In this document: one piece after another, positions 13,753-29,608 of the stretch
Numbering within the stretch: the stretch's first letter is position 1
Layout: each line of letters opens with the position of its first letter
NCBI GenBank assembly: GCA_963749575.1
Contig: CAVVNM010000014.1
Location: forward strand, 79,603-143,602
Direction of reading: 5' to 3'
DNA: 64,000 nucleotides
Source of the DNA: an uncultured Alphaproteobacteria bacterium
GTDB taxonomy: Bacteria; Pseudomonadota; Alphaproteobacteria; Acetobacterales; Acetobacteraceae
Position numbers and translations under genes: made by a program
The notes under the pieces: model-generated
Databases searched by the model: none
What the model was told of the DNA's origin: nothing
The model's input: the letters and a program-made list of their open reading frames with translations, nothing else

Positions 13753-14673
13753 ATGAGCGAATTGCGGGTGGTGGCGACGGGTCTGTGTTTTCCCGAGGGG
13801 CCGGTGGCCATGGCCGACGGCTCGGTCGTCCTGGGCGAGATCGAGCGCCAGACCGTCAGCCGCGTGCTGCCGGACGGCACGGTGCAGGTGATCGCCCGCA
13901 CCGGCGGCGGTCCGAACGGCTTGGCGGTGGGGCCGGACGGTGCCTGCTACGTCTGCAACAACGGCGGCTTCGCCTGGCGGCTGGAGGAGAACCTGTTCCG
14001 CCCGGCCGCGGCGTCATCCGACTACGTCGGCGGCAGCATCCAACGGGTAGATCCGAACACCGCCGTGGTCAGCGTGCTGTACGACCGCTGCGGCGCCAAC
14101 AAGCTGAACGGGCCGAACGACATCGTGTTCGACGCCCATGGCGGCTTCTATTTCACCGACCTCGGCAAGACCCGCGCGCGTGATCGCGACAACGGCGTGA
14201 TCTACTACGCGCTGGCGGACGGCTCGAGGATCGTCGAGGTCGCGTATCCCGCGCTGACCCCGAACGGCATCGGCCTGTCGCCGGACGGCGCGGTGCTCTA
14301 CGTCGCCGAGACCGAGCCGGCGCGGCTGTGGGCGTTCGACATCGACACGCCGGGGGTGGTGAAGAAGCATGGATGGCCGTCACCGCATGGCGGCCGGCTG
14401 GTCATCGGACTGCCTGGGTTGCAGCGGTTCGACAGCCTCGCGGTGGCGGCTTCCGGCAACATCTGCGTCGCGACGCTGATCACCGGCTGCATCAGCGTGA
14501 TCGCGCCGGACGGACGGCTGGTGCGGCAGGTGGCGATGCCCGATCCGGTGACGACCAACATCTGCTTCGGCGGAGCGGACCTGCGGACCGCGTACGTCAC
14601 GCTTTCAGGCACCGGCCAGCTGGTCGCCATGGAATGGCCCGAGCCGGGGCTGCCCATGGCGTACCACACCTGA
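13753..14673 (+). CDS. SMP-30/gluconolactonase/LRE family protein
   Basis: Start at MSELRVVATGLCFPEGP (frame-checked). The long upstream extension of the ORF is antisense to the ligase gene. Motifs NGPNDIVFD and PNGIGLSPDG. Confidence 0.8.
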   Translation: MSELRVVATGLCFPEGPVAMADGSVVLGEIERQTVSRVLPDGTVQVIARTGGGPNGLAVGPDGACYVCNNGGFAWRLEENLFRPAAASSDYVGGSIQRVDPNTAVVSVLYDRCGANKLNGPNDIVFDAHGGFYFTDLGKTRARDRDNGVIYYALADGSRIVEVAYPALTPNGIGLSPDGAVLYVAETEPARLWAFDIDTPGVVKKHGWPSPHGGRLVIGLPGLQRFDSLAVAASGNICVATLITGCISVIAPDGRLVRQVAMPDPVTTNICFGGADLRTAYVTLSGTGQLVAMEWPEPGLPMAYHT

Positions 14674-17433: not shown

Positions 17434-18689
17434 TGCCCCGACCCGGACCACAGGCAAGGCTCTGGCTGGTCACCTTCGGCATGGCGGCGGTGATCATCTA
17501 TGGCTCGCTGTATCCGTTCGAGTTCCGGGTCCCGCCGGGCGGCGTTGGACCGCTGGCAACCTTGCTGGGCAGCGTCTGGGATCGGCCAAGCCGGAGCGAT
17601 GCGGTGGCCAACGTCCTGTTGTACATGCCGTTCGGCTGCTTCTTCCTGCTTGGTTCCCGCGGCGCCTCCCGCCGGCTCGGAGTACTCGCACTCGCCACCG
17701 CGATCGGCGGTCTGATGTCGCTGAGCATGGAGCTGACCCAGTACTATGATGTCGGACGCGTCACGAACTTCAGCGACCTGGTCACCAATACTCTCGGCAC
17801 GCTGCTGGGCGGTCTCGTTGCAATCGCGATCGGCGCGAGCTTCCGGGTGCCGTTGCTCGGTGAAGTGACCGCGCGTCCCGTCCCGGCTCTGCTGATCCTG
17901 TCATGGCTGGCCTATCGTCTGTATCCGTATGTGCCGACGATCGATCTGCACAAGTACTGGAATGCGCTGAAGCCGGTCGTGCTGACGCCGTCGCTCACCG
18001 GCTACGACCTGTTCCGCCAGACCGCGGTCTGGCTCACTCTCTACGCGCTGGTCGAGGCGGTGCTACGCCGGCGGTGGTCCGCGTTCGTCGCGCCGCTGTT
18101 CGCGATCGCCGCGATGAGCGCCCAGGTGATGATTGTCGACCTTGGTCTCAGGCTGGCGGAACCGGTCGGCGCCGCTCTGGCATTCGGGATCTGGCTGCTG
18201 CTCCTGCTGGTGGCTCCCGCACGGTTGCGGACCGGCGCGGCCGCACTGGCGCTGTGCTGCTACGTCGTCGCGCTGCGGCTGGAACCGTTCACGTTCCAGA
18301 CCGTCGGGCACCAATTCGGCTGGATCCCGTTCCTCGGCATGATGCAGGGTTCGCTGACGGTCGATACTTTGGCGTTCCTGGAGAAGTTCTTCCTGTACGG
18401 CAGCATGATCTATCTGATCGGCGATGTCCTCGGCCGCCGGCTGCCGGCAGCCCTGCTCACGGCCGCGCTGTTGTTCGCGACCAGCTGGGCCGAGACCCGG
18501 CTTCCCGGACGCTCGGCGGAGATCACCGATACGGTCATGGCGCTGACGATCGCGGCCATTTTCGCGCTGCTCGGGCCCGAGCGGGATGGCGGTTCGGCAC
18601 CTGCCGCCGCCCGGCTCACCGCCCGCGAACGGCGGGTGCGCGACTGGCAACGCGAGCAGGCGCGGGCACTGGGGGTGGAATTGGATTGA
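17433..18689 (+). CDS. VanZ-family membrane protein with long polytopic C-terminal extension
   Basis: ATG overlaps the anmK stop (TGATG). VanZ-like N-terminal part (IYGSLYPFEF, NVLLYMPFG, SMELTQYYDVGR, DLVTNTLG) followed by several further TM segments; 418 aa. Confidence 0.65.
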   Translation: MPRPGPQARLWLVTFGMAAVIIYGSLYPFEFRVPPGGVGPLATLLGSVWDRPSRSDAVANVLLYMPFGCFFLLGSRGASRRLGVLALATAIGGLMSLSMELTQYYDVGRVTNFSDLVTNTLGTLLGGLVAIAIGASFRVPLLGEVTARPVPALLILSWLAYRLYPYVPTIDLHKYWNALKPVVLTPSLTGYDLFRQTAVWLTLYALVEAVLRRRWSAFVAPLFAIAAMSAQVMIVDLGLRLAEPVGAALAFGIWLLLLLVAPARLRTGAAALALCCYVVALRLEPFTFQTVGHQFGWIPFLGMMQGSLTVDTLAFLEKFFLYGSMIYLIGDVLGRRLPAALLTAALLFATSWAETRLPGRSAEITDTVMALTIAAIFALLGPERDGGSAPAAARLTARERRVRDWQREQARALGVELD

Positions 18690-23648: not shown

Positions 23649-24809
23649 ATGCGCATCCTGGTCGCGATGTCGGGCGGGGTGGACAGCAGCACCGTCGCCG
23701 GGCTGCTGCACGAGGCGGGCCACGAGGTGATCGGCGTCACGCTGCAGCTGTACGACCACGGCGCGGCGGCCGGACGGAAGGGCGCGTGTTGCGCCGGCCA
23801 GGATATCCACGATGCGCGCCGGGTGGCGGATCATCTCGGCATCCCGCACTACGTGATCGACGCCGAGACGCGGTTCGCCGATGCGGTGATCCGCGACTTC
23901 GCCGACAGCTATGCGGCCGGTGAGACGCCGGTGCCCTGCATACGCTGCAACCAGACGGTGAAGTTTGCCGACCTTGCCGCGCTGGCCCATGGCCTCGGGG
24001 CCGAACGGCTGGCGACCGGGCACTACGTGCGGCGGATCGATGGCCCGGAGGGGCCGGAACTGCACCGCGCCGCCGACCACGCGCGCGATCAGAGCTGGTT
24101 CCTGTTCGCCACCACGCGCGAGCAGCTTGCGTTCACGCTGTTTCCGCTGGGGGAGATGGTCGACAAGCGGACGGTGCGCGCCGAAGCGGAACGGCTCGGT
24201 CTGCCGGTGGCCGCCAAGCCCGACAGCCAGGACATCTGCTTCGTCATGTCGGGGCACTACGCCGACACGGTGGTACGGCTGCGGCCGGACGCCGGCGAAG
24301 CGGGCGACATTGTCGATCGGGACGGCCGGGTGCTGGGCCGGCATGACGGAATCGCGCGCTACACGGTTGGTCAAGGCAAGCGGCTGGAGGCGGCGGCGAT
24401 GGATCGCGGGACGCGCCAGACCGTGGTTGCGCTCGATCCGACGCGGCGACGGGTGATCGTGGGGCCACGCGACGCAGGCACGCGAGTGGTGCGATTGCGT
24501 GAGGTGAACTGGCTGGTGCCGCCGTCCAATGGATCGCTGGCGTGCCAGGTGAAGCTGCGCGCGAGAGAGGCGCCGCAGCCGGCGACCGTGTCACCCACTT
24601 GCGCCGAGCTGACGGCCGGGGCGGTGGTGTGGCTCGATGCGCCTGCTCTGCCGGCGCCCGGACAGGCCTGCGTGTTCTACGCTGGCTCGCGTGTGCTGGG
24701 CGGCGGCTTCATCTGCCGGACCGCGGCGGCGGCGGCAGTTGACGCGGCGGGGGACGGCAGACTATCTCCCCTGCCCTTCGGATCGGATGGCGGCGTAGCT
24801 CAGCGGTAG
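23649..24809 (+). CDS. mnmA: tRNA 2-thiouridine(34) synthase
   Basis: PP-loop VAMSGGVDSS and conserved CIRCN, RDQSWFLF motifs. The ORF tail runs 21 nt into the tRNA gene, so the true C-terminus is uncertain. Confidence 0.9.
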   Translation: MRILVAMSGGVDSSTVAGLLHEAGHEVIGVTLQLYDHGAAAGRKGACCAGQDIHDARRVADHLGIPHYVIDAETRFADAVIRDFADSYAAGETPVPCIRCNQTVKFADLAALAHGLGAERLATGHYVRRIDGPEGPELHRAADHARDQSWFLFATTREQLAFTLFPLGEMVDKRTVRAEAERLGLPVAAKPDSQDICFVMSGHYADTVVRLRPDAGEAGDIVDRDGRVLGRHDGIARYTVGQGKRLEAAAMDRGTRQTVVALDPTRRRVIVGPRDAGTRVVRLREVNWLVPPSNGSLACQVKLRAREAPQPATVSPTCAELTAGAVVWLDAPALPAPGQACVFYAGSRVLGGGFICRTAAAAAVDAAGDGRLSPLPFGSDGGVAQR

Positions 24810-24863
24810 AGCAGGGGAATCATAATCCCTTGGTCGGTGGTTCAAATCCGCCCGCCGCTACCA
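24789..24863 (+). tRNA. tRNA with CAT anticodon (elongator Met, or Ile2 if lysidine-modified), CCA encoded
   Basis: Hand-folded cloverleaf: acceptor GGCGGCG/CGCCGCT, D arm GCTC-AGCGGTA-GAGC, anticodon arm GGGGA-ATCATAA-TCCCT, T arm GGTGG-TTCAAAT-CCGCC, then A-CCA. 75 nt. Confidence 0.9.
24832..24863 (+). repeat. Direct repeat copy 1 (attL-like): 3' end of the tRNA
   Basis: ggtcggtggttcaaatccgcccgccgctacca. Recurs at 28657..28688 with 2 mismatches. Confidence 0.9.
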
Positions 24864-25064
24864 ATCAGATCAAGGAGTTATACGCCGAAGCGAAGCTCGG
24901 ATGGCCCCCATGGGAAAATCCGGGGCGCAGGTGGGGAACCGTGAACGCGTTTTTTATTGCGCATCCTGATTGGCCACCGTCGCCCGGTTGGCGAGACACG
25001 ATGGTGCCCGAAGTTGCTCTGGAGCGAGGTGCCATATCTCATCAATGCTGACAGAGGCGCTTCC

Positions 25065-25584
25065 GTGGCGAGCATCACCATCCGCAACCTGGACGACTCG
25101 CTGAAATCCCGTCTGCGTATTCAGGCGGCGGTTCATGGCCGCTCGATGGAGGACGAGGCGCGTGACATTTTGCGCTCGTCACTCAATCAGAAGCCGCCGG
25201 AACCAAAGAACCTTGTCACGGCGATCAATGCCCTCCCTGCTGCGACCGTGTTCATTTCCGCCGTCACGCAAGCGGAAATCCTCCATGGCACTGGTGCCGG
25301 AAGGGAAGCGGCGAGAGGGGTTGGCACGGGCCGTCCGCACCGCGTTCGAGACCCACTTTCGCGGCCGTATTCTGCCCTTCGACTCGGAAGCTGCCTAGGC
25401 GTTCGTCCCCCTGGCTACCGGCCGCCGCCAGGCTGGCCGGCCGATGTCACAGGCGGACGTTCAGATTGCCGCGATCGCCCGATCCCGCGGTGCAGTCCTT
25501 GCCACCCGCAACGTGGCGGATTTTGCCGGATACGGGGGCGAGATCGCTAACCCTTGGGGTGGTTCCGCAAAGGAGCCGGCCTGA
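25065..25584 (+). pseudogene. Decayed fitAB/vapBC-type toxin-antitoxin module (RHH antitoxin fused to truncated PIN toxin)
   Basis: VASITIRNLDDSLKSRLRIQAAVHGRSMEDEARDILR is a FitA/VapB-like N-terminus. Near 25230 it jumps into the PIN middle (VFISAVTQAEILHG). There is a frame switch near 25290 and an in-frame TAG at 25396-25398. The C-terminus QADVQIAAIARSRGAVLATRNVADF is PIN-like. Confidence 0.7.
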
Positions 25585-25758
25585 AAAGTGCCGAGGCCGA
25601 TCCGCCGGTTTATTCCGGTACACCCGATAACTGGCTGAAATAGCTGATCTTTCGCCTCAAACCGGACGGAAGCAAATGGAACCGCTATTCAGCGCGCGAT
25701 CGCCGCCGCACACGCCGGTGCGTGCGCGCAATTCGTTGCTGCGCGGATGTCGTCGGCG

Positions 25759-28572
25759 TCAGAGGGTCTTTGTGGTGTTGTAGGCTCTGATGGCCAGTGC
25801 CTGCGCGGTAAGATCGTCAACGGTTTGGAACGCCCCCACAGCCACGCCGCCCAGCAGCAGCAGCGCGGTGGCCACTGGACCTCCGGGGCTGGCGAAGTTG
25901 CCAGGGGATTCCGCGCTGGCTATCGCGGTCGGATAAAACGATGAGAGGTCAGTAGCCGGCTGCGACGTATTCGAGCCGGCCGACTGGTATGCGCCGGCGG
26001 TCGCCTCAAGCGCCCCCAGGGATACCGGAGGTTCCACCGCCAGCGCGGTCTGCAAGGTGGGTTGGGCCGCTCCGCTCCAGCCGGTGAAGATCCCGGCCTG
26101 CTGCGCAATGCTGGCGATGTCGGCATCAGGATCGGTGGCGGCCAGCTGGGTGGCCAGGGCGTTCATCGCGTTGATCGAGCGGGTGCCGGTGACGTTCGCG
26201 GCGATCTGCACCGCCGGGCTGTCGATCTCTCGCGTCAGCGTGCCGTTCGCCAGCCGCGTGCCGGTCTGGGCAACCACGGTAAGGCTCTGCGAGCCGCCGG
26301 TGCCGGTGACGTAGGTCAGCTGCGCGAACTCATCGGCGGTGAAATCGGTCTGGCCGGTGACATTGTTGCCGGCCAGCCAGAGCTGCCCGCCGGTGCCGCC
26401 GCCATCGCCCAGCGCCACGCGATATCCGGCGATCGTCTGTCCGGCTGCTGCGCCGGCCTTGAACAGACCGACCATCCGGTAGCTGTCGCCAGCCTGGGCG
26501 GTGAAGTTGCCCGCGGTCTGCAAGGTGGGTTGGGCCGCTCCGCTCCAGCCGGTGAAGATCCCGGCCTGCTGCGCAATGCTGGCGATGTCGGCATCGGGAT
26601 CGGTGGCGGCCAGCTGGGTGGCCAGGGCGTTCATCGCGTTGATCGAGCGAGTGCCGGTGACGTTCGCGGCGATCTGCACCGCCGGGCTGTCGATCTCCCG
26701 CGTCAGCGTGCCGTTCGCCAGTCGCGTGCCGGTCTGGGCAACCACGGTAAGGCTCTGCGAGCCAGCGGTGCCGGCGACATAGGTCAGCTGCGCGAACTCA
26801 TCGGCGGTGAAATCGGTCTGGCCGGTGACATTGTTGCCGGCCAGCCAGAGCTGGCCGCCGGTGCCGCCGCCATCGCCCAGCGCCACGCGATATCCGGCGA
26901 TCGTCTGTCCGGATGCTGCGCCGGCCTTGAACAGACCGACCATCCGGTAGCTGTCGCCAGCCTGGGCGGTGAAGTTGCCGTCGGTCTGCAAGGTGGGTTG
27001 GGCCGCTCCGCTCCAGCCGGTGAAGATCCCGGCCTGCTGCGCAATGCTGGCGATGTCGGCATCAGGATCGGTGGCGGCCAGCTGGGTGGCCAGGGCGTTC
27101 ATCGCGTTGATCGAGCGAGTGCCGGTGACGTTCGCGGCGATCTGCACCGCCGGGCTGTCGATCTCTCGCGTCAGCGTGCCGTTCGCCAGCCGCGTGCCGG
27201 TCTGGGCAACCACGGTAAGGCTCTGCGAGCCGCCGGTGCCGGTGACGTAGGTCAGCTGCGCGAACTCGTCGGCGGTGAAATCGGTCTGGCCGGTGACATT
27301 GTTGCCGGCCAGCCAGAGCTGCCCGCCGGTGCCGCCGCCATCGCCCAGCGCCACGCGATATCCGGCGATCGTCTGTCCGGATGCTGCGCCGGCCTTGAAC
27401 AGACCGACCATCCGGTAGCTGTCGCCAGCCTGGGCGGTGAAGTTGCCGTCGGTCTGCAAGGTGGGTTGGGCCGCTCCGCTCCAGCCGGTGAAGATCCCGG
27501 CCTGCTGCGCAATGCTGGCGATGTCGGCATCAGGATCGGTGGCGGCCAGCTGGGTCGCCAGGGCGTTCATCGCGTTGATCGAGCGAGTGCCGGTGACGTT
27601 CGCGGCGATCTGCACCGCCGGGCTGTCGATCTCTCGCGTCAGCGTGCCGTTCGCCAGCCGCGTGCCGGTCTGGGCAACCACGGTAAGGCTCTGCGAGCCG
27701 CCGGTGCCGGTGACGTAGGTCAGCTGCGCGAACTCGTCGGCGGTGAAATCGGTCTGGCCGGTGACATTGTTGCCGGCCAGCCAGAGCTGCCCGCCGGTGC
27801 CGCCGCCATCGCCCAGCGCCACGCGATATCCGGCGATCGTCTGTCCGGCTGCTGCGCCGGCCTTGAACAGACCGACCATCCGGTAGCTGTCGCCAGCCTG
27901 GGCGGTGAAGTTGCCCGCGGTCTGCAAGGTGGGTTGGGCCGCTCCGCTCCAGCCGGTGAAGATCCCGGCCTGCTGCGCAATGCTGGCGATGTCGGCATCG
28001 GGATCGGTGGCGGCCAGCTGGGTCGCCAGGGCGTTCATCGCGTTGATCGAGCGGGTGCCGGTGACGTTCGCGGCGATCTGCACCGCCGGGCTGTCGATCT
28101 CCCGCGTCAGCGTGCCGTTCGCCAGCCGCGTGCCGGTCTGGGCAACCACGGTAAGGCTCTGCGAGCCAGCGGTGCCGGTGACGTAGGTCAGCTGCGCGAA
28201 CTCATCGGCAGTGAAATCGGTCTGGCCGGTGACATTGTTGCCGGCCAGCCAGAGCTGCCCGCCGGTGCCGCCGCCATCGCCCAGCGCCACGCGATATCCG
28301 GCGATCGTCTGTCCGGATGCTGCGCCGGCCTTGAACAGACCGACCATCCGGTAGCTGTCGCCAGCCTGGGCGGTGAAGTTGCCAGCTACGAGTGCATTGC
28401 TGATGCTGATTACGTCAACCGGCGCTGAGCTCGAGGCAGGAGTGGTTGATGTCGCAACTGCGGACGCGGGCGTGGTGCTCGAAACCGACGCGTCCTGCGT
28501 AGCGGGGTTGTCCGTTGTGAAACTGTAGCCGGCTGGCAGCTGCAACGAGAATGGAAGGATGCTCAAACTCAT
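25759..28572 (-). CDS. Repeat protein of unknown function: 64-aa S/T/P-rich N-terminus, 5 x 156-aa near-identical units, 93-aa tail with one hydrophobic segment
   Basis: Start chosen at MSLSILPF (ATG 28572); an alternative ATG is at 28635. Third codon positions are almost uniformly G/C on this strand. The opposite-strand 788-aa ORF is Arg/Gly-rich shadow. Confidence 0.75.
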   Translation of the reverse strand: MSLSILPFSLQLPAGYSFTTDNPATQDASVSSTTPASAVATSTTPASSSAPVDVISISNALVAGNFTAQAGDSYRMVGLFKAGAASGQTIAGYRVALGDGGGTGGQLWLAGNNVTGQTDFTADEFAQLTYVTGTAGSQSLTVVAQTGTRLANGTLTREIDSPAVQIAANVTGTRSINAMNALATQLAATDPDADIASIAQQAGIFTGWSGAAQPTLQTAGNFTAQAGDSYRMVGLFKAGAAAGQTIAGYRVALGDGGGTGGQLWLAGNNVTGQTDFTADEFAQLTYVTGTGGSQSLTVVAQTGTRLANGTLTREIDSPAVQIAANVTGTRSINAMNALATQLAATDPDADIASIAQQAGIFTGWSGAAQPTLQTDGNFTAQAGDSYRMVGLFKAGAASGQTIAGYRVALGDGGGTGGQLWLAGNNVTGQTDFTADEFAQLTYVTGTGGSQSLTVVAQTGTRLANGTLTREIDSPAVQIAANVTGTRSINAMNALATQLAATDPDADIASIAQQAGIFTGWSGAAQPTLQTDGNFTAQAGDSYRMVGLFKAGAASGQTIAGYRVALGDGGGTGGQLWLAGNNVTGQTDFTADEFAQLTYVAGTAGSQSLTVVAQTGTRLANGTLTREIDSPAVQIAANVTGTRSINAMNALATQLAATDPDADIASIAQQAGIFTGWSGAAQPTLQTAGNFTAQAGDSYRMVGLFKAGAAAGQTIAGYRVALGDGGGTGGQLWLAGNNVTGQTDFTADEFAQLTYVTGTGGSQSLTVVAQTGTRLANGTLTREIDSPAVQIAANVTGTRSINAMNALATQLAATDPDADIASIAQQAGIFTGWSGAAQPTLQTALAVEPPVSLGALEATAGAYQSAGSNTSQPATDLSSFYPTAIASAESPGNFASPGGPVATALLLLGGVAVGAFQTVDDLTAQALAIRAYNTTKTL
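26041..28386. repeat. Tandem array, 5 x 468 bp, nearly identical units, in frame with the CDS
   Basis: The landmark ggtctgcaaggtgggttgggcc occurs at 26047, 26515, 26983, 27451 and 27919 (period 468). Shadow ORFs also recur with the same period. Confidence 0.95.
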
Positions 28573-28656
28573 AGCTTGCAACTCACGATGCGGTGCCAGT
28601 CTAGGCTTGCATGCTTTACGAGCGCTGAAATTCATCGCGGGGGAAGCACGTTGACG

Positions 28657-28688
28657 GGTCGGTGGTTCAGATCCGCCCGCCGCCACCA
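28657..28688 (+). repeat. Direct repeat copy 2 (attR-like): partial tRNA 3' end
   Basis: ggtcggtggttcagatccgcccgccgccacca: 30/32 identical to 24832..24863, same orientation. Overlaps the last codons of the LysR gene. Confidence 0.9.
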
Positions 28689-29608
28689 TCCGATGCGGTG
28701 GTCCATGGCGCGGCACCCATGGTGAAGCGTCGCGCCAGGAAATCCAGCAGTACGGCAACGCGGGTTGGCCTTGGTCCGCCGGCCGGGGTGATCAGATGCA
28801 AAGCCAGCGCCGGCGCCGACCAGTCGTTCAGCACGATCTCGAGCCGCCCCGCTCGCACCGCGTCCCAGACGACAAAGTCCGGCTGCAGCGCCACCCCGCA
28901 GCCAGCCTCCGCTGCGAAGCCCAATGCCTCGGCGTTGGTCGCGCTGAGCGGCCCCTTCACGATCACCATCTCCTCGGTGCCGTTGGCATCGGTGAACCGC
29001 CAGGTCTCGCCGGTCGCGAGATACAGATAGCCGAGACACGCGTGATGCCGCAGATCGCGCGGATGGCTGGGCCGGCCGTGCCGGGCGAAATAGTCGGGCG
29101 CGCCGACCACCCAGCGGCGCACCGGGCATAGCCGGCGGGCGATCAGGCTGGAATCTGCCAGATCGGCGATGCGGACCGCGACATCGATGCCGCCGGCGAT
29201 CAGATCGACAACCCTGTCATCGAGCTGGAGATCGACCGAGACCTCGGGATAGGCCGCCAGGAACTCCGGCAGCGCCGGCGCAACATGCCGCAGGCCGAAC
29301 GACATCGGCGCGGCCAGCCGCACGCGGCCACGCGGCACCGCCGAGCTGGCGTGCGCCTCGGCCTCGGCCGCCTCGCCTTCGGCCAGGATGCGTGCCGCGC
29401 GCACCGCGAGCACCCGCCCGGCCTCGGTCAGCGCGAAACGGCGCGAGGTCCGGTGAATCAGCTTCTCCCCCAGCCGTGCCTCGAGCCGCTGTATGGCCTT
29501 CGACACAGTCGGACCGGACAGGCGCAGCTCCGCGGCGGCAGCGGCAAACGAGCCGGTCTCGGCCACCTTGGCAAAGACCGCCCAGGCTTCCAGGTCGGGC
29601 AGGCTCAT
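28667..29608 (-). CDS. LysR-family transcriptional regulator
   Basis: 313 aa. N-terminal wHTH LEAWAVFAKVAETGSFAAAAAELRLSGPTVSKAIQRLE. Divergent from the pirin genes. Confidence 0.9.
   Translation of the reverse strand: MSLPDLEAWAVFAKVAETGSFAAAAAELRLSGPTVSKAIQRLEARLGEKLIHRTSRRFALTEAGRVLAVRAARILAEGEAAEAEAHASSAVPRGRVRLAAPMSFGLRHVAPALPEFLAAYPEVSVDLQLDDRVVDLIAGGIDVAVRIADLADSSLIARRLCPVRRWVVGAPDYFARHGRPSHPRDLRHHACLGYLYLATGETWRFTDANGTEEMVIVKGPLSATNAEALGFAAEAGCGVALQPDFVVWDAVRAGRLEIVLNDWSAPALALHLITPAGGPRPTRVAVLLDFLARRFTMGAAPWTTASDGGGGRI

Follow-up and report, generated by a model that had tools for sequence, protein, structure and literature searches.

Here, we describe a small genomic islet in a 64-kb stretch of DNA from an uncultured soil member of the Acetobacteraceae (contig CAVVNM010000014.1 of assembly GCA_963749575.1). 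That whole stretch is called the window below, and the loci compared with it carry L numbers. The islet sits between a tRNA-Met gene and the gene of a LysR-family regulator, and it ends in a second copy of the tRNA 3' part. Inside are a leader, a ruined toxin-antitoxin pair, a spacer, and one intact and highly repetitive open reading frame (ORF), referred to here as the cargo gene.

The tRNA gene, its displaced 3' end and the empty site

The sole tRNA that ARAGORN finds in the window is a tRNA-Met with anticodon CAT at 24789-24863 on the forward strand, and Rfam recognizes the same interval (RF00005, 66 bits; gathering score, 29). A CAT anticodon alone does not tell elongator tRNA-Met from tRNA-Ile2 (lysidine), and the name "tRNA-Met" is used here as a call by anticodon. 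The sequence is identical to that of the tRNA in L001, L003, L008, L012, and L084. Its last 32 nucleotides (nt), running through the CCA (GGTCGGTGGTTCAAATCCGCCCGCCGCTACCA, 24832-24863, forward strand), recur on the same strand at 28657-28688 (GGTCGGTGGTTCAGATCCGCCCGCCGCCACCA), with a spacing of 3825 nt and 30 of 32 positions identical. At acceptor position 72 the second copy has C where the tRNA has T, and in the T-loop it has G in place of A. The window holds no further copy, and when up to three mismatches were allowed, 100 dinucleotide-preserving shuffles of the window gave no match to the 32-mer. This repeat had been pointed out in an earlier note made from the letters alone, and both the repeat comparison and the shuffles bear it out. 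We refer to the whole tRNA gene, the regenerated target, as attL, and to the displaced 3' fragment as attR.

Relatives that lack the intervening DNA define the insertion. A search through close LysR homologues led to L084, a 140-kb contig from ENA with ∼88-89% nt identity to the window on both flanks, in which the order is pirin-pirin, LysR, tRNA-Met, mnmA, and fdx, with nothing between LysR and the tRNA. Three independent JGI contigs (L100, L102, and L104) encode the identical LysR protein (P0228) in the same empty arrangement. The empty-site set thus comprises four sister-species contigs from four samples, at ∼88-90% nt identity to the window. In these contigs, homology reaches as far as 24863-24871 on the left flank of the window and resumes from 28657 on the right, so that the two stretches overlap on the 32-mer. 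In addition, the sequence that follows the intact tRNA in the empty-site contigs (TCCAGTTCGGCGGTCCATGG; TCCAGTTCGGCGGTCCATGGCGCGGTACCC) is the sequence that follows attR in the window (TCCGATGCGGTGGTCCATGG; TCCGATGCGGTGGTCCATGGCGCGGCACCC). Because the empty sites break at the repeat, 24864-28688 (3825 bp) is an insertion with exact boundaries, at which the tRNA 3' end is duplicated. The unoccupied site (attB) reads as the tRNA followed by TCCGATGCGG, and the predicted junction of an excised circle would be CGTTGACG, the 32-mer, and ATCAGATCAAGG. The earlier note had expected tRNA-Met to adjoin the LysR gene directly wherever the site was empty, and this is the arrangement in all four contigs; the contrary outcome that it had allowed for, namely relatives that all carry the islet DNA, did not materialize.

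Exact-pattern scans of metagenome contigs for the empty-site/attR junction and for the attL junction returned 0 matches, the collection evidently being without these samples. One further contig, L081, was considered as a same-species empty site and set aside. It ends 3 nt past the tRNA ("TCC"), and these 3 nt are ambiguous since the same-species contig L107, which encodes an identical MnmA, continues TCTACATC into a variant of the islet.

Contents and decay of the islet

The part of the islet that precedes the cargo gene (24864-25758) has a G + C content (GC) of 62.5%, compared with 66.7% for the whole window and ∼70% for the adjacent core flanks. It opens with a tRNA-proximal leader (24864-25064; ∼59-62% GC) that holds no recognizable ORF and has no match in Pfam or PHROGs. 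These ∼200 nt between the tRNA and the toxin-antitoxin pair occupy the site where an integrase gene would normally sit. They are homologous to the leader of L107, at 82-92% identity.

There follows, on the forward strand, the remnant of a FitA/VapB-like ribbon-helix-helix (RHH) antitoxin (25065-25226; Pfam PF22513, E = 5e-19), of which residues 1-54 of ∼82 persist, with 67% identity to VapB of the Sinorhizobium fredii plasmid pNGR234b. Directly behind it, also on the forward strand, lies a PIN-domain toxin remnant (25227-25584), recognized by tblastn with the NGR234 VapC. The intact vapBC pair of pNGR234b served as the reference for judging decay. A deletion of ∼160 bp has removed the antitoxin C-terminus together with roughly the first 26 toxin residues, fusing the antitoxin to the middle of the PIN gene, and the span of the pair is accordingly 518 bp in the window versus ∼680 bp in plasmid matches. 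Two further lesions of the PIN remnant are a frameshift near 25290 and, in frame, a TAG at 25396-25398; residues 49-137 of NGR234 VapC map from 25291 onwards, with the stop inside the alignment. Judged from these lesions, the FitA/PIN pair of the window is demonstrably dead. A spacer of ∼105 nt (25585-25689) separates it from the DNA of the cargo gene.

The islet retains no recombinase genes. Neither Pfam nor PHROGs gave a match to an integrase, excisionase, resolvase, or transposase among its ORFs (non-cargo ORFs of at least 40 amino acids [aa], plus the cargo), and tblastn of two tyrosine integrases from viral contigs (L091 and L092, described below) against the window found nothing. Similarly, no remnants of conjugation or mobilization genes are seen in the islet, and a scan of it for promoter and terminator consensus sequences returned nothing. 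As for a prophage remnant, there were only sub-threshold, repeat-driven PHROGs matches of unknown function, and no DNA match among 50,697 phage records. The earlier note had read the islet as a decayed toxin-antitoxin pair and one repetitive ORF, with no integrase, excisionase, or transposase in any frame; the PF22513 match, the PIN comparison, and Tandem Repeats Finder (TRF) confirm the first part, and the Pfam and PHROGs searches agree with the second.

The cargo gene is an intact ORF of 938 aa on the reverse strand (28575 to 25759). Most of it is a tandem array at 26044-28383, in which TRF counts 5.0 units of 468 bp at 98% identity. Its homologues form ∼106 clusters, nearly all of 890-960 aa and annotated as hypothetical; where an organism is named, it always belongs to the Acetobacteraceae (Roseomonas, Siccirubricoccus, Paracraurococcus, and others). 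Pfam, NCBIfam, and PHROGs offer only summed weak repeat matches below cut-off, and there is no match to the gene on plasmids or phages. By its matches, the cargo is thus an uncharacterized family, seen only in Acetobacteraceae. Three homologues examined closely (L088, 10001-12856; L089, 3393-6260; L090, 10001-12859) have exactly five units each, of 468-477 bp (156-159 aa). Units within one homologue gene are 85-92% identical at the nt level (98% in the window), compared with 63-80% at the aa level between genomes; the excess of within-gene over between-genome identity indicates concerted evolution of the units.

An AlphaFold2 model from an alignment of 40 sequences (predicted local distance difference test, 80.6; predicted TM score, 0.76) proposes five 156-aa beta-sandwich modules with helical inserts, preceded by a disordered, Ser/Thr/Ala-rich N-terminus of 59 residues and followed by a C-terminal hydrophobic helix. 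Foldseek against the PDB returned only generic tandem immunoglobulin/fibronectin type III (Ig/FN3) arrays, among them pilin fusions and the Ig-like domains of PrgB. The predicted string of five modules is thus akin to the tandem Ig-like/FN3-like surface proteins of bacteria, from which the cargo differs in belonging to no sequence family and in having no evident signal peptide. The protein is probably surface-exposed, and the family might merit study in that light.

It is plausible that selection has kept this gene. The ratio of nonsynonymous to synonymous substitution rates (dN/dS) against the three homologues is 0.29-0.31, the ORF is intact, and both stand in contrast to the dead toxin-antitoxin pair beside it. 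The phrase of the earlier note, "a remnant whose cargo gene has been kept," therefore holds as far as the dead pair and the missing recombinase are concerned, and its second half is plausible rather than proven.

The repeats also affect how the family is assembled. The short-read contigs L082, L096, and L097 break inside the array, and in L095 (300-1709) the cargo was assembled with two units (469 aa), which is almost certainly a repeat collapse in a short-read metagenome-assembled genome (MAG). Since arrays break or collapse in this way, the repeat number of the family will be under-reported in short-read assemblies.

Within the species of the window, the islet can be followed in five contigs from different samples (98.3-99.4% identity), including the MAG GCA_936401745.1; JGI samples 3300055389, 3300062722, 3300064109, and 3300060670 also contain this species. 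L082, L095, L096, and L097 each hold the start of the cargo gene, attR, and LysR, and the fifth, L098, begins inside the attR copy and has LysR and pirin only. The two attR substitutions of the window are shared with L082, and a third is present in L095, L096, and L097; this third substitution shows that attR drifts. L107, the mnmA contig of the same MAG, runs from the tRNA through a variant leader into an intact FitA (82 aa) and an intact PIN toxin (145 aa; Pfam PF01850, E = 1.6e-14). The succession that defines FitAB/VapBC, an RHH antitoxin and then a whole PIN toxin, is therefore present in L107 and broken in the window.

The islet of this MAG has in addition received an insertion sequence (IS)-like element, one end of which lies at L107 12261-12553 and the other at the opening of L095 (1-155). 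Its termini are perfect inverted repeats of 17 bp (GTAACAGGGGCAAAACC), and 8 bp of the target (CGTTACAC) are duplicated at the equivalent of 25611-25618 (CGGTACAC), a point within the spacer of the window. No family could be assigned from its end pieces of 40-52 aa.

Other elements at the same tRNA and the origin of the islet

The window islet is one of several elements that have used this site. In the sister species, L099, L103, L105, and L106 encode the same LysR protein as the empty contigs and have no whole tRNA beside it. Instead, there is a perfect 50-51-nt tRNA fragment (…GGGGAATCATAATCCCTTGGTCGG…ACCA; sites at L099 6921-6952, L103 2790-2821, L105 1682-1713, and L106 1853-1884), followed by DNA unrelated to the window islet, the small ORFs of which have no match in Pfam or PHROGs. 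The attB is therefore polymorphic in the sister species, being empty or occupied beside an identical LysR protein. A viral scan for the attR junction of this element gave 0 matches.

A more distant case is L003 (11117-17909), an Acetobacteraceae MAG in which the whole tRNA is followed by two tandem integrase-less islets. An exact 46-nt copy of the tRNA lies 3 kb downstream of it, at 14195-14240. The third copy, 3.7 kb past the second at ∼17860-17909, is degenerate and contains a 1-nt insertion. The first islet, of low GC, holds a trypsin-like ORF along with a resolvase that is truncated at the N-terminus by 42 profile positions; the second encodes an AAA_16/TPR protein. Similarly, two IMG/VR viral contigs, L091 (4094-6178) and L092 (436-1764), contain 44-46 nt of the 3' part of this tRNA and no whole tRNA, with a tyrosine integrase ORF 0.1-0.8 kb away (Pfam Phage_integrase, 31-33 bits vs. 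a cut-off of 27.1). The integrases of L091 and L092 share 61% identity. This is the layout expected of an integrase gene beside an element's own attachment site (attP), and we regard both as candidate attP-integrase modules for this tRNA; they have no other likeness to the window islet. The viral scan for the attL junction gave one match, L094, which we dismiss as chance, as it falls inside an unrelated phage coding region. At all of these other elements the tRNA copy runs from the anticodon stem or loop through the CCA, a stretch that corresponds to one of the sublocations within tRNA genes that integrase subfamilies are reported to use (bioRxiv 10.1101/2020.11.02.365908). The same attB has thus been used repeatedly by different elements.

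In our view, the window very likely holds a decayed tRNA-integrated islet, similar to a cis-mobilizable element (CIME), that has lost its integration module. A circular element bearing a copy of the tRNA 3' part as its attP would have recombined site-specifically with the tRNA gene 3' of mnmA, presumably by means of a tyrosine integrase, as in the standard mechanism for islands in tRNA genes (tDNA; PMC4383910). Integration would have regenerated the tRNA and displaced its original 3' end, now a dead 32-nt attR, by 3.8 kb against LysR. The integrase and most of the element may later have been lost by deletion, which would leave an immobile and decaying islet made up of the leader, the dead FitA/PIN pair, the spacer, and one intact gene for a predicted five-module beta-sandwich protein. 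As its attR is truncated and mutated, the islet is probably no longer excisable.

Several observations weigh against a history as simple as this one. No empty site is found within the species itself, where four of four contigs reaching the attR side are occupied. An integrase-bearing relative of the islet, for which the earlier note had proposed to search, did not turn up, and the better-preserved L107/L095 copy is also without an integrase gene, so that we infer such an ancestor rather than see it. At the right end, the native upstream DNA of the cargo gene reaches to ∼4 nt from the 32-mer, leaving no attP arm beside attR, and the tRNA fragment has 32 nt, whereas each of the five other elements at this tRNA has a fragment of 44-51 nt; the short fragment and the missing arm together call for at least one further rearrangement. 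At the left end, 24864-25623 of the window and 11213-12261 of L107 are only 82-89% identical, with indels of 117 nt and 146 nt, although the same two strains are 98.2-98.3% identical over 11-kb flanks and 99.3% identical in the non-repeat parts of the cargo. One integration followed by drift does not account for this mosaic divergence, and we suspect that the leader and toxin-antitoxin part underwent allele replacement through recombination with a related element.

The right end bears on how the cargo arrived, and here a two-step origin, which is compatible with the loss of an integration module, deserves tentative consideration, at somewhat less than an even chance. The att-flanked remnant would then comprise the leader and the toxin-antitoxin pair, and the cargo segment (∼25690-28652) would be a later addition through illegitimate or homologous recombination that clipped the fragment from ∼50 to 32 nt; the element itself would then not have brought the cargo in. 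The two closest cargo homologues (77-78% aa identity) lie away from any tRNA, between Peptidase_M20 and MFS genes, and a third is found elsewhere. The nt homology to these L088 and L089 loci covers the gene, ∼80 nt upstream, and ∼85 nt downstream; the upstream region in the window (28576-28656, reverse strand) is homologous to theirs up to ∼28652, that is, to within ∼4 nt of the 32-mer. Because this upstream DNA abuts a fragment that is uniquely short for the site, the cargo may be a secondary arrival, and the 99.3% identity of the cargo part between strains, versus 82-89% for the left part, points the same way. Secondary joining with clipping is the simplest reading of these facts; the alternative is that the element carried the cargo from the start. 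Elements can indeed carry such genes from the outset, and the L088 and L089 copies could be the derived ones. Likewise, a block just before the 32-mer that matches the anticodon stem of the tRNA at 10 of 12 positions (p ∼0.002, post hoc) could be the vestige of a longer, unclipped fragment, but the same bases also align with the upstream region of the L089 cargo, which makes the match ambiguous.

The islet need not be dead to lack an integrase: as a CIME or satellite-like element it could still undergo excision, transfer, or accretion through the integrase of another element at the same tRNA, acting in trans or in cis. The sharing of one attB by several unrelated elements, the tandem accretion in L003, the polymorphic site in the sister species, and the left-part mosaic (82-89% vs. 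98% in the flanks), which suggests exchange with a related element, all speak for such mobility, and the CIME concept itself is established (PMC5704250). We nevertheless think it unlikely. The attR substitutions, two or three in number, differ between strains, and attR is missing the anticodon-loop part, which all other copies seen contain and at which integrases of this sublocation class are reported to act (bioRxiv 10.1101/2020.11.02.365908). There is also no arm-type DNA beside attR, no homologue of the L091 or L092 integrase in the window, and no vacancy among the same-species contigs that reach attR.

Far less credible still is the notion that no att pair exists here, the repeat being instead a chance likeness, a functional LysR 3'-end sequence, or a second, degenerate tRNA gene. 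Its one attraction is that the copy overlaps the LysR stop codon, the last seven codons and the stop being read from the tRNA-like copy (28667-28688). The shuffles speak against chance, and neither ARAGORN nor Rfam sees a second tRNA at 28657-28688. LysR homologues are conserved up to "…APWT" (residue ∼303) and then diverge completely; the 32-mer therefore does not belong to the conserved part of LysR, a possibility that the earlier note had raised as an objection to its own reading. The tail in the window, "TASDGGGGRI*," is translated tRNA fragment, and in the empty-site contigs LysR reads into the real tRNA to end in "DGSGGRI" (reflecting T72), an arrangement that already contradicts the whole notion.

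The decayed islet thus remains our preferred reading. A bolder picture, which we regard as improbable, would make the tRNA(CAU) site 3' of mnmA an active exchange point in uncultured soil Acetobacteraceae. Small integrase-less islets, such as the one in the window and the pair in L003, would be swapped, accreted, and partly replaced by the integrases of unrelated elements, and the five-module gene would travel between such islets and chromosomal loci as a self-contained cassette, homogenizing its own repeats. If this were true, the islet would be a working piece of a trans-mobilized gene-shuffling system rather than a fossil.

Known systems, flanking genes and host lineage

The published definition of tDNA islands matches the signature described here (Islander; Hudson, Lau and Williams 2015, PMC4383910). 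Of the four Islander-type features, three are present, namely an intact tRNA at one boundary, a tDNA fragment in the same orientation at the other, and an unoccupied attB in relatives; the fourth, a tyrosine integrase gene inside, is absent. Like Islander islands, the islet has a regenerated tRNA, a displaced 3' direct-repeat fragment, an empty site, and a place in a hotspot with several elements. Unlike them, it is only 3.8 kb long, and its fragment has only 32 nt and bears substitutions. The Islander filter would reject it because it has no integrase gene, and integrase-based island finders in general would miss such an islet. Features of an insertion sequence or transposon are likewise missing, since the ends are direct repeats of tRNA sequence, not inverted repeats, and there is no transposase.

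CIMEs, which are elements without integration genes that yet keep attL and attR (PMC5704250), are a second likeness in descriptive terms. In the islet, integration and transfer genes are gone, att-derived repeats lie at the tRNA 3' end, and a relative, L003, has undergone tandem accretion. It differs from CIMEs in that there are no conjugation or mobilization remnants to indicate descent from an integrative and conjugative or an integrative and mobilizable element, and in that the host belongs to an uncultured alphaproteobacterial lineage and is not a streptococcus. The attL is intact; attR, with 32 nt and two or three substitutions against the 44-51 nt of other elements, looks truncated and mutated, so that mobilization in cis is doubtful. 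The toxin-antitoxin pair resembles FitAB/VapBC of Sinorhizobium megaplasmids (pNGR234b) in its RHH-PIN gene order and ∼70% nt identity; unlike the plasmid pair, its genes are pseudogenes in the window (deletion, frameshift, and stop) and intact only in L107.

The islet leaves the current understanding of tRNA-targeted integration unchanged. Its value is that of a clean, bounded case: an att-flanked integrase-less islet with its empty site, alternative occupants, and strain-level decay, in a lineage known almost only from metagenomes. Mildly unusual are the mosaic divergence of the left part, the cargo promoter region abutting the tRNA fragment, and the cargo family itself.

The left core flank is mnmA, which encodes a tRNA 2-thiouridylase (23649-24809, forward strand; Pfam tRNA_Me_trans, E = 6e-69). 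The MnmA of the window has at most 79% identity to any GTDB species representative, and its best matches are soil and peat Acetobacteraceae MAGs. The order fdx-mnmA-tRNA(CAT) is kept in 11 relatives, in none of which are the LysR/pirin genes or the cargo gene found within 10 kb downstream; the genes 3' of the tRNA vary between genera. A look for an integrase beside the tRNA in distant relatives yielded only ordinary, non-syntenic genes as the nearest ORFs in L001, L005, L009, L012, L013, L020, and L021 (L004 and L014 lay outside the scan). On the right, the LysR gene (28667-29608, reverse strand; Pfam HTH_1 and LysR_substrate) is followed by divergent pirin genes.

Both flanking genes run into tRNA sequence. 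The LysR stop codon TGA is the reverse complement of the T-loop "TCA," which belongs to the dead fragment in the window and to the live tRNA in the empty-site genomes. The stop codon of the mnmA ORF (TAG, 24807-24809) lies within the D-arm of the tRNA, a 21-nt overlap that is present also in L003.

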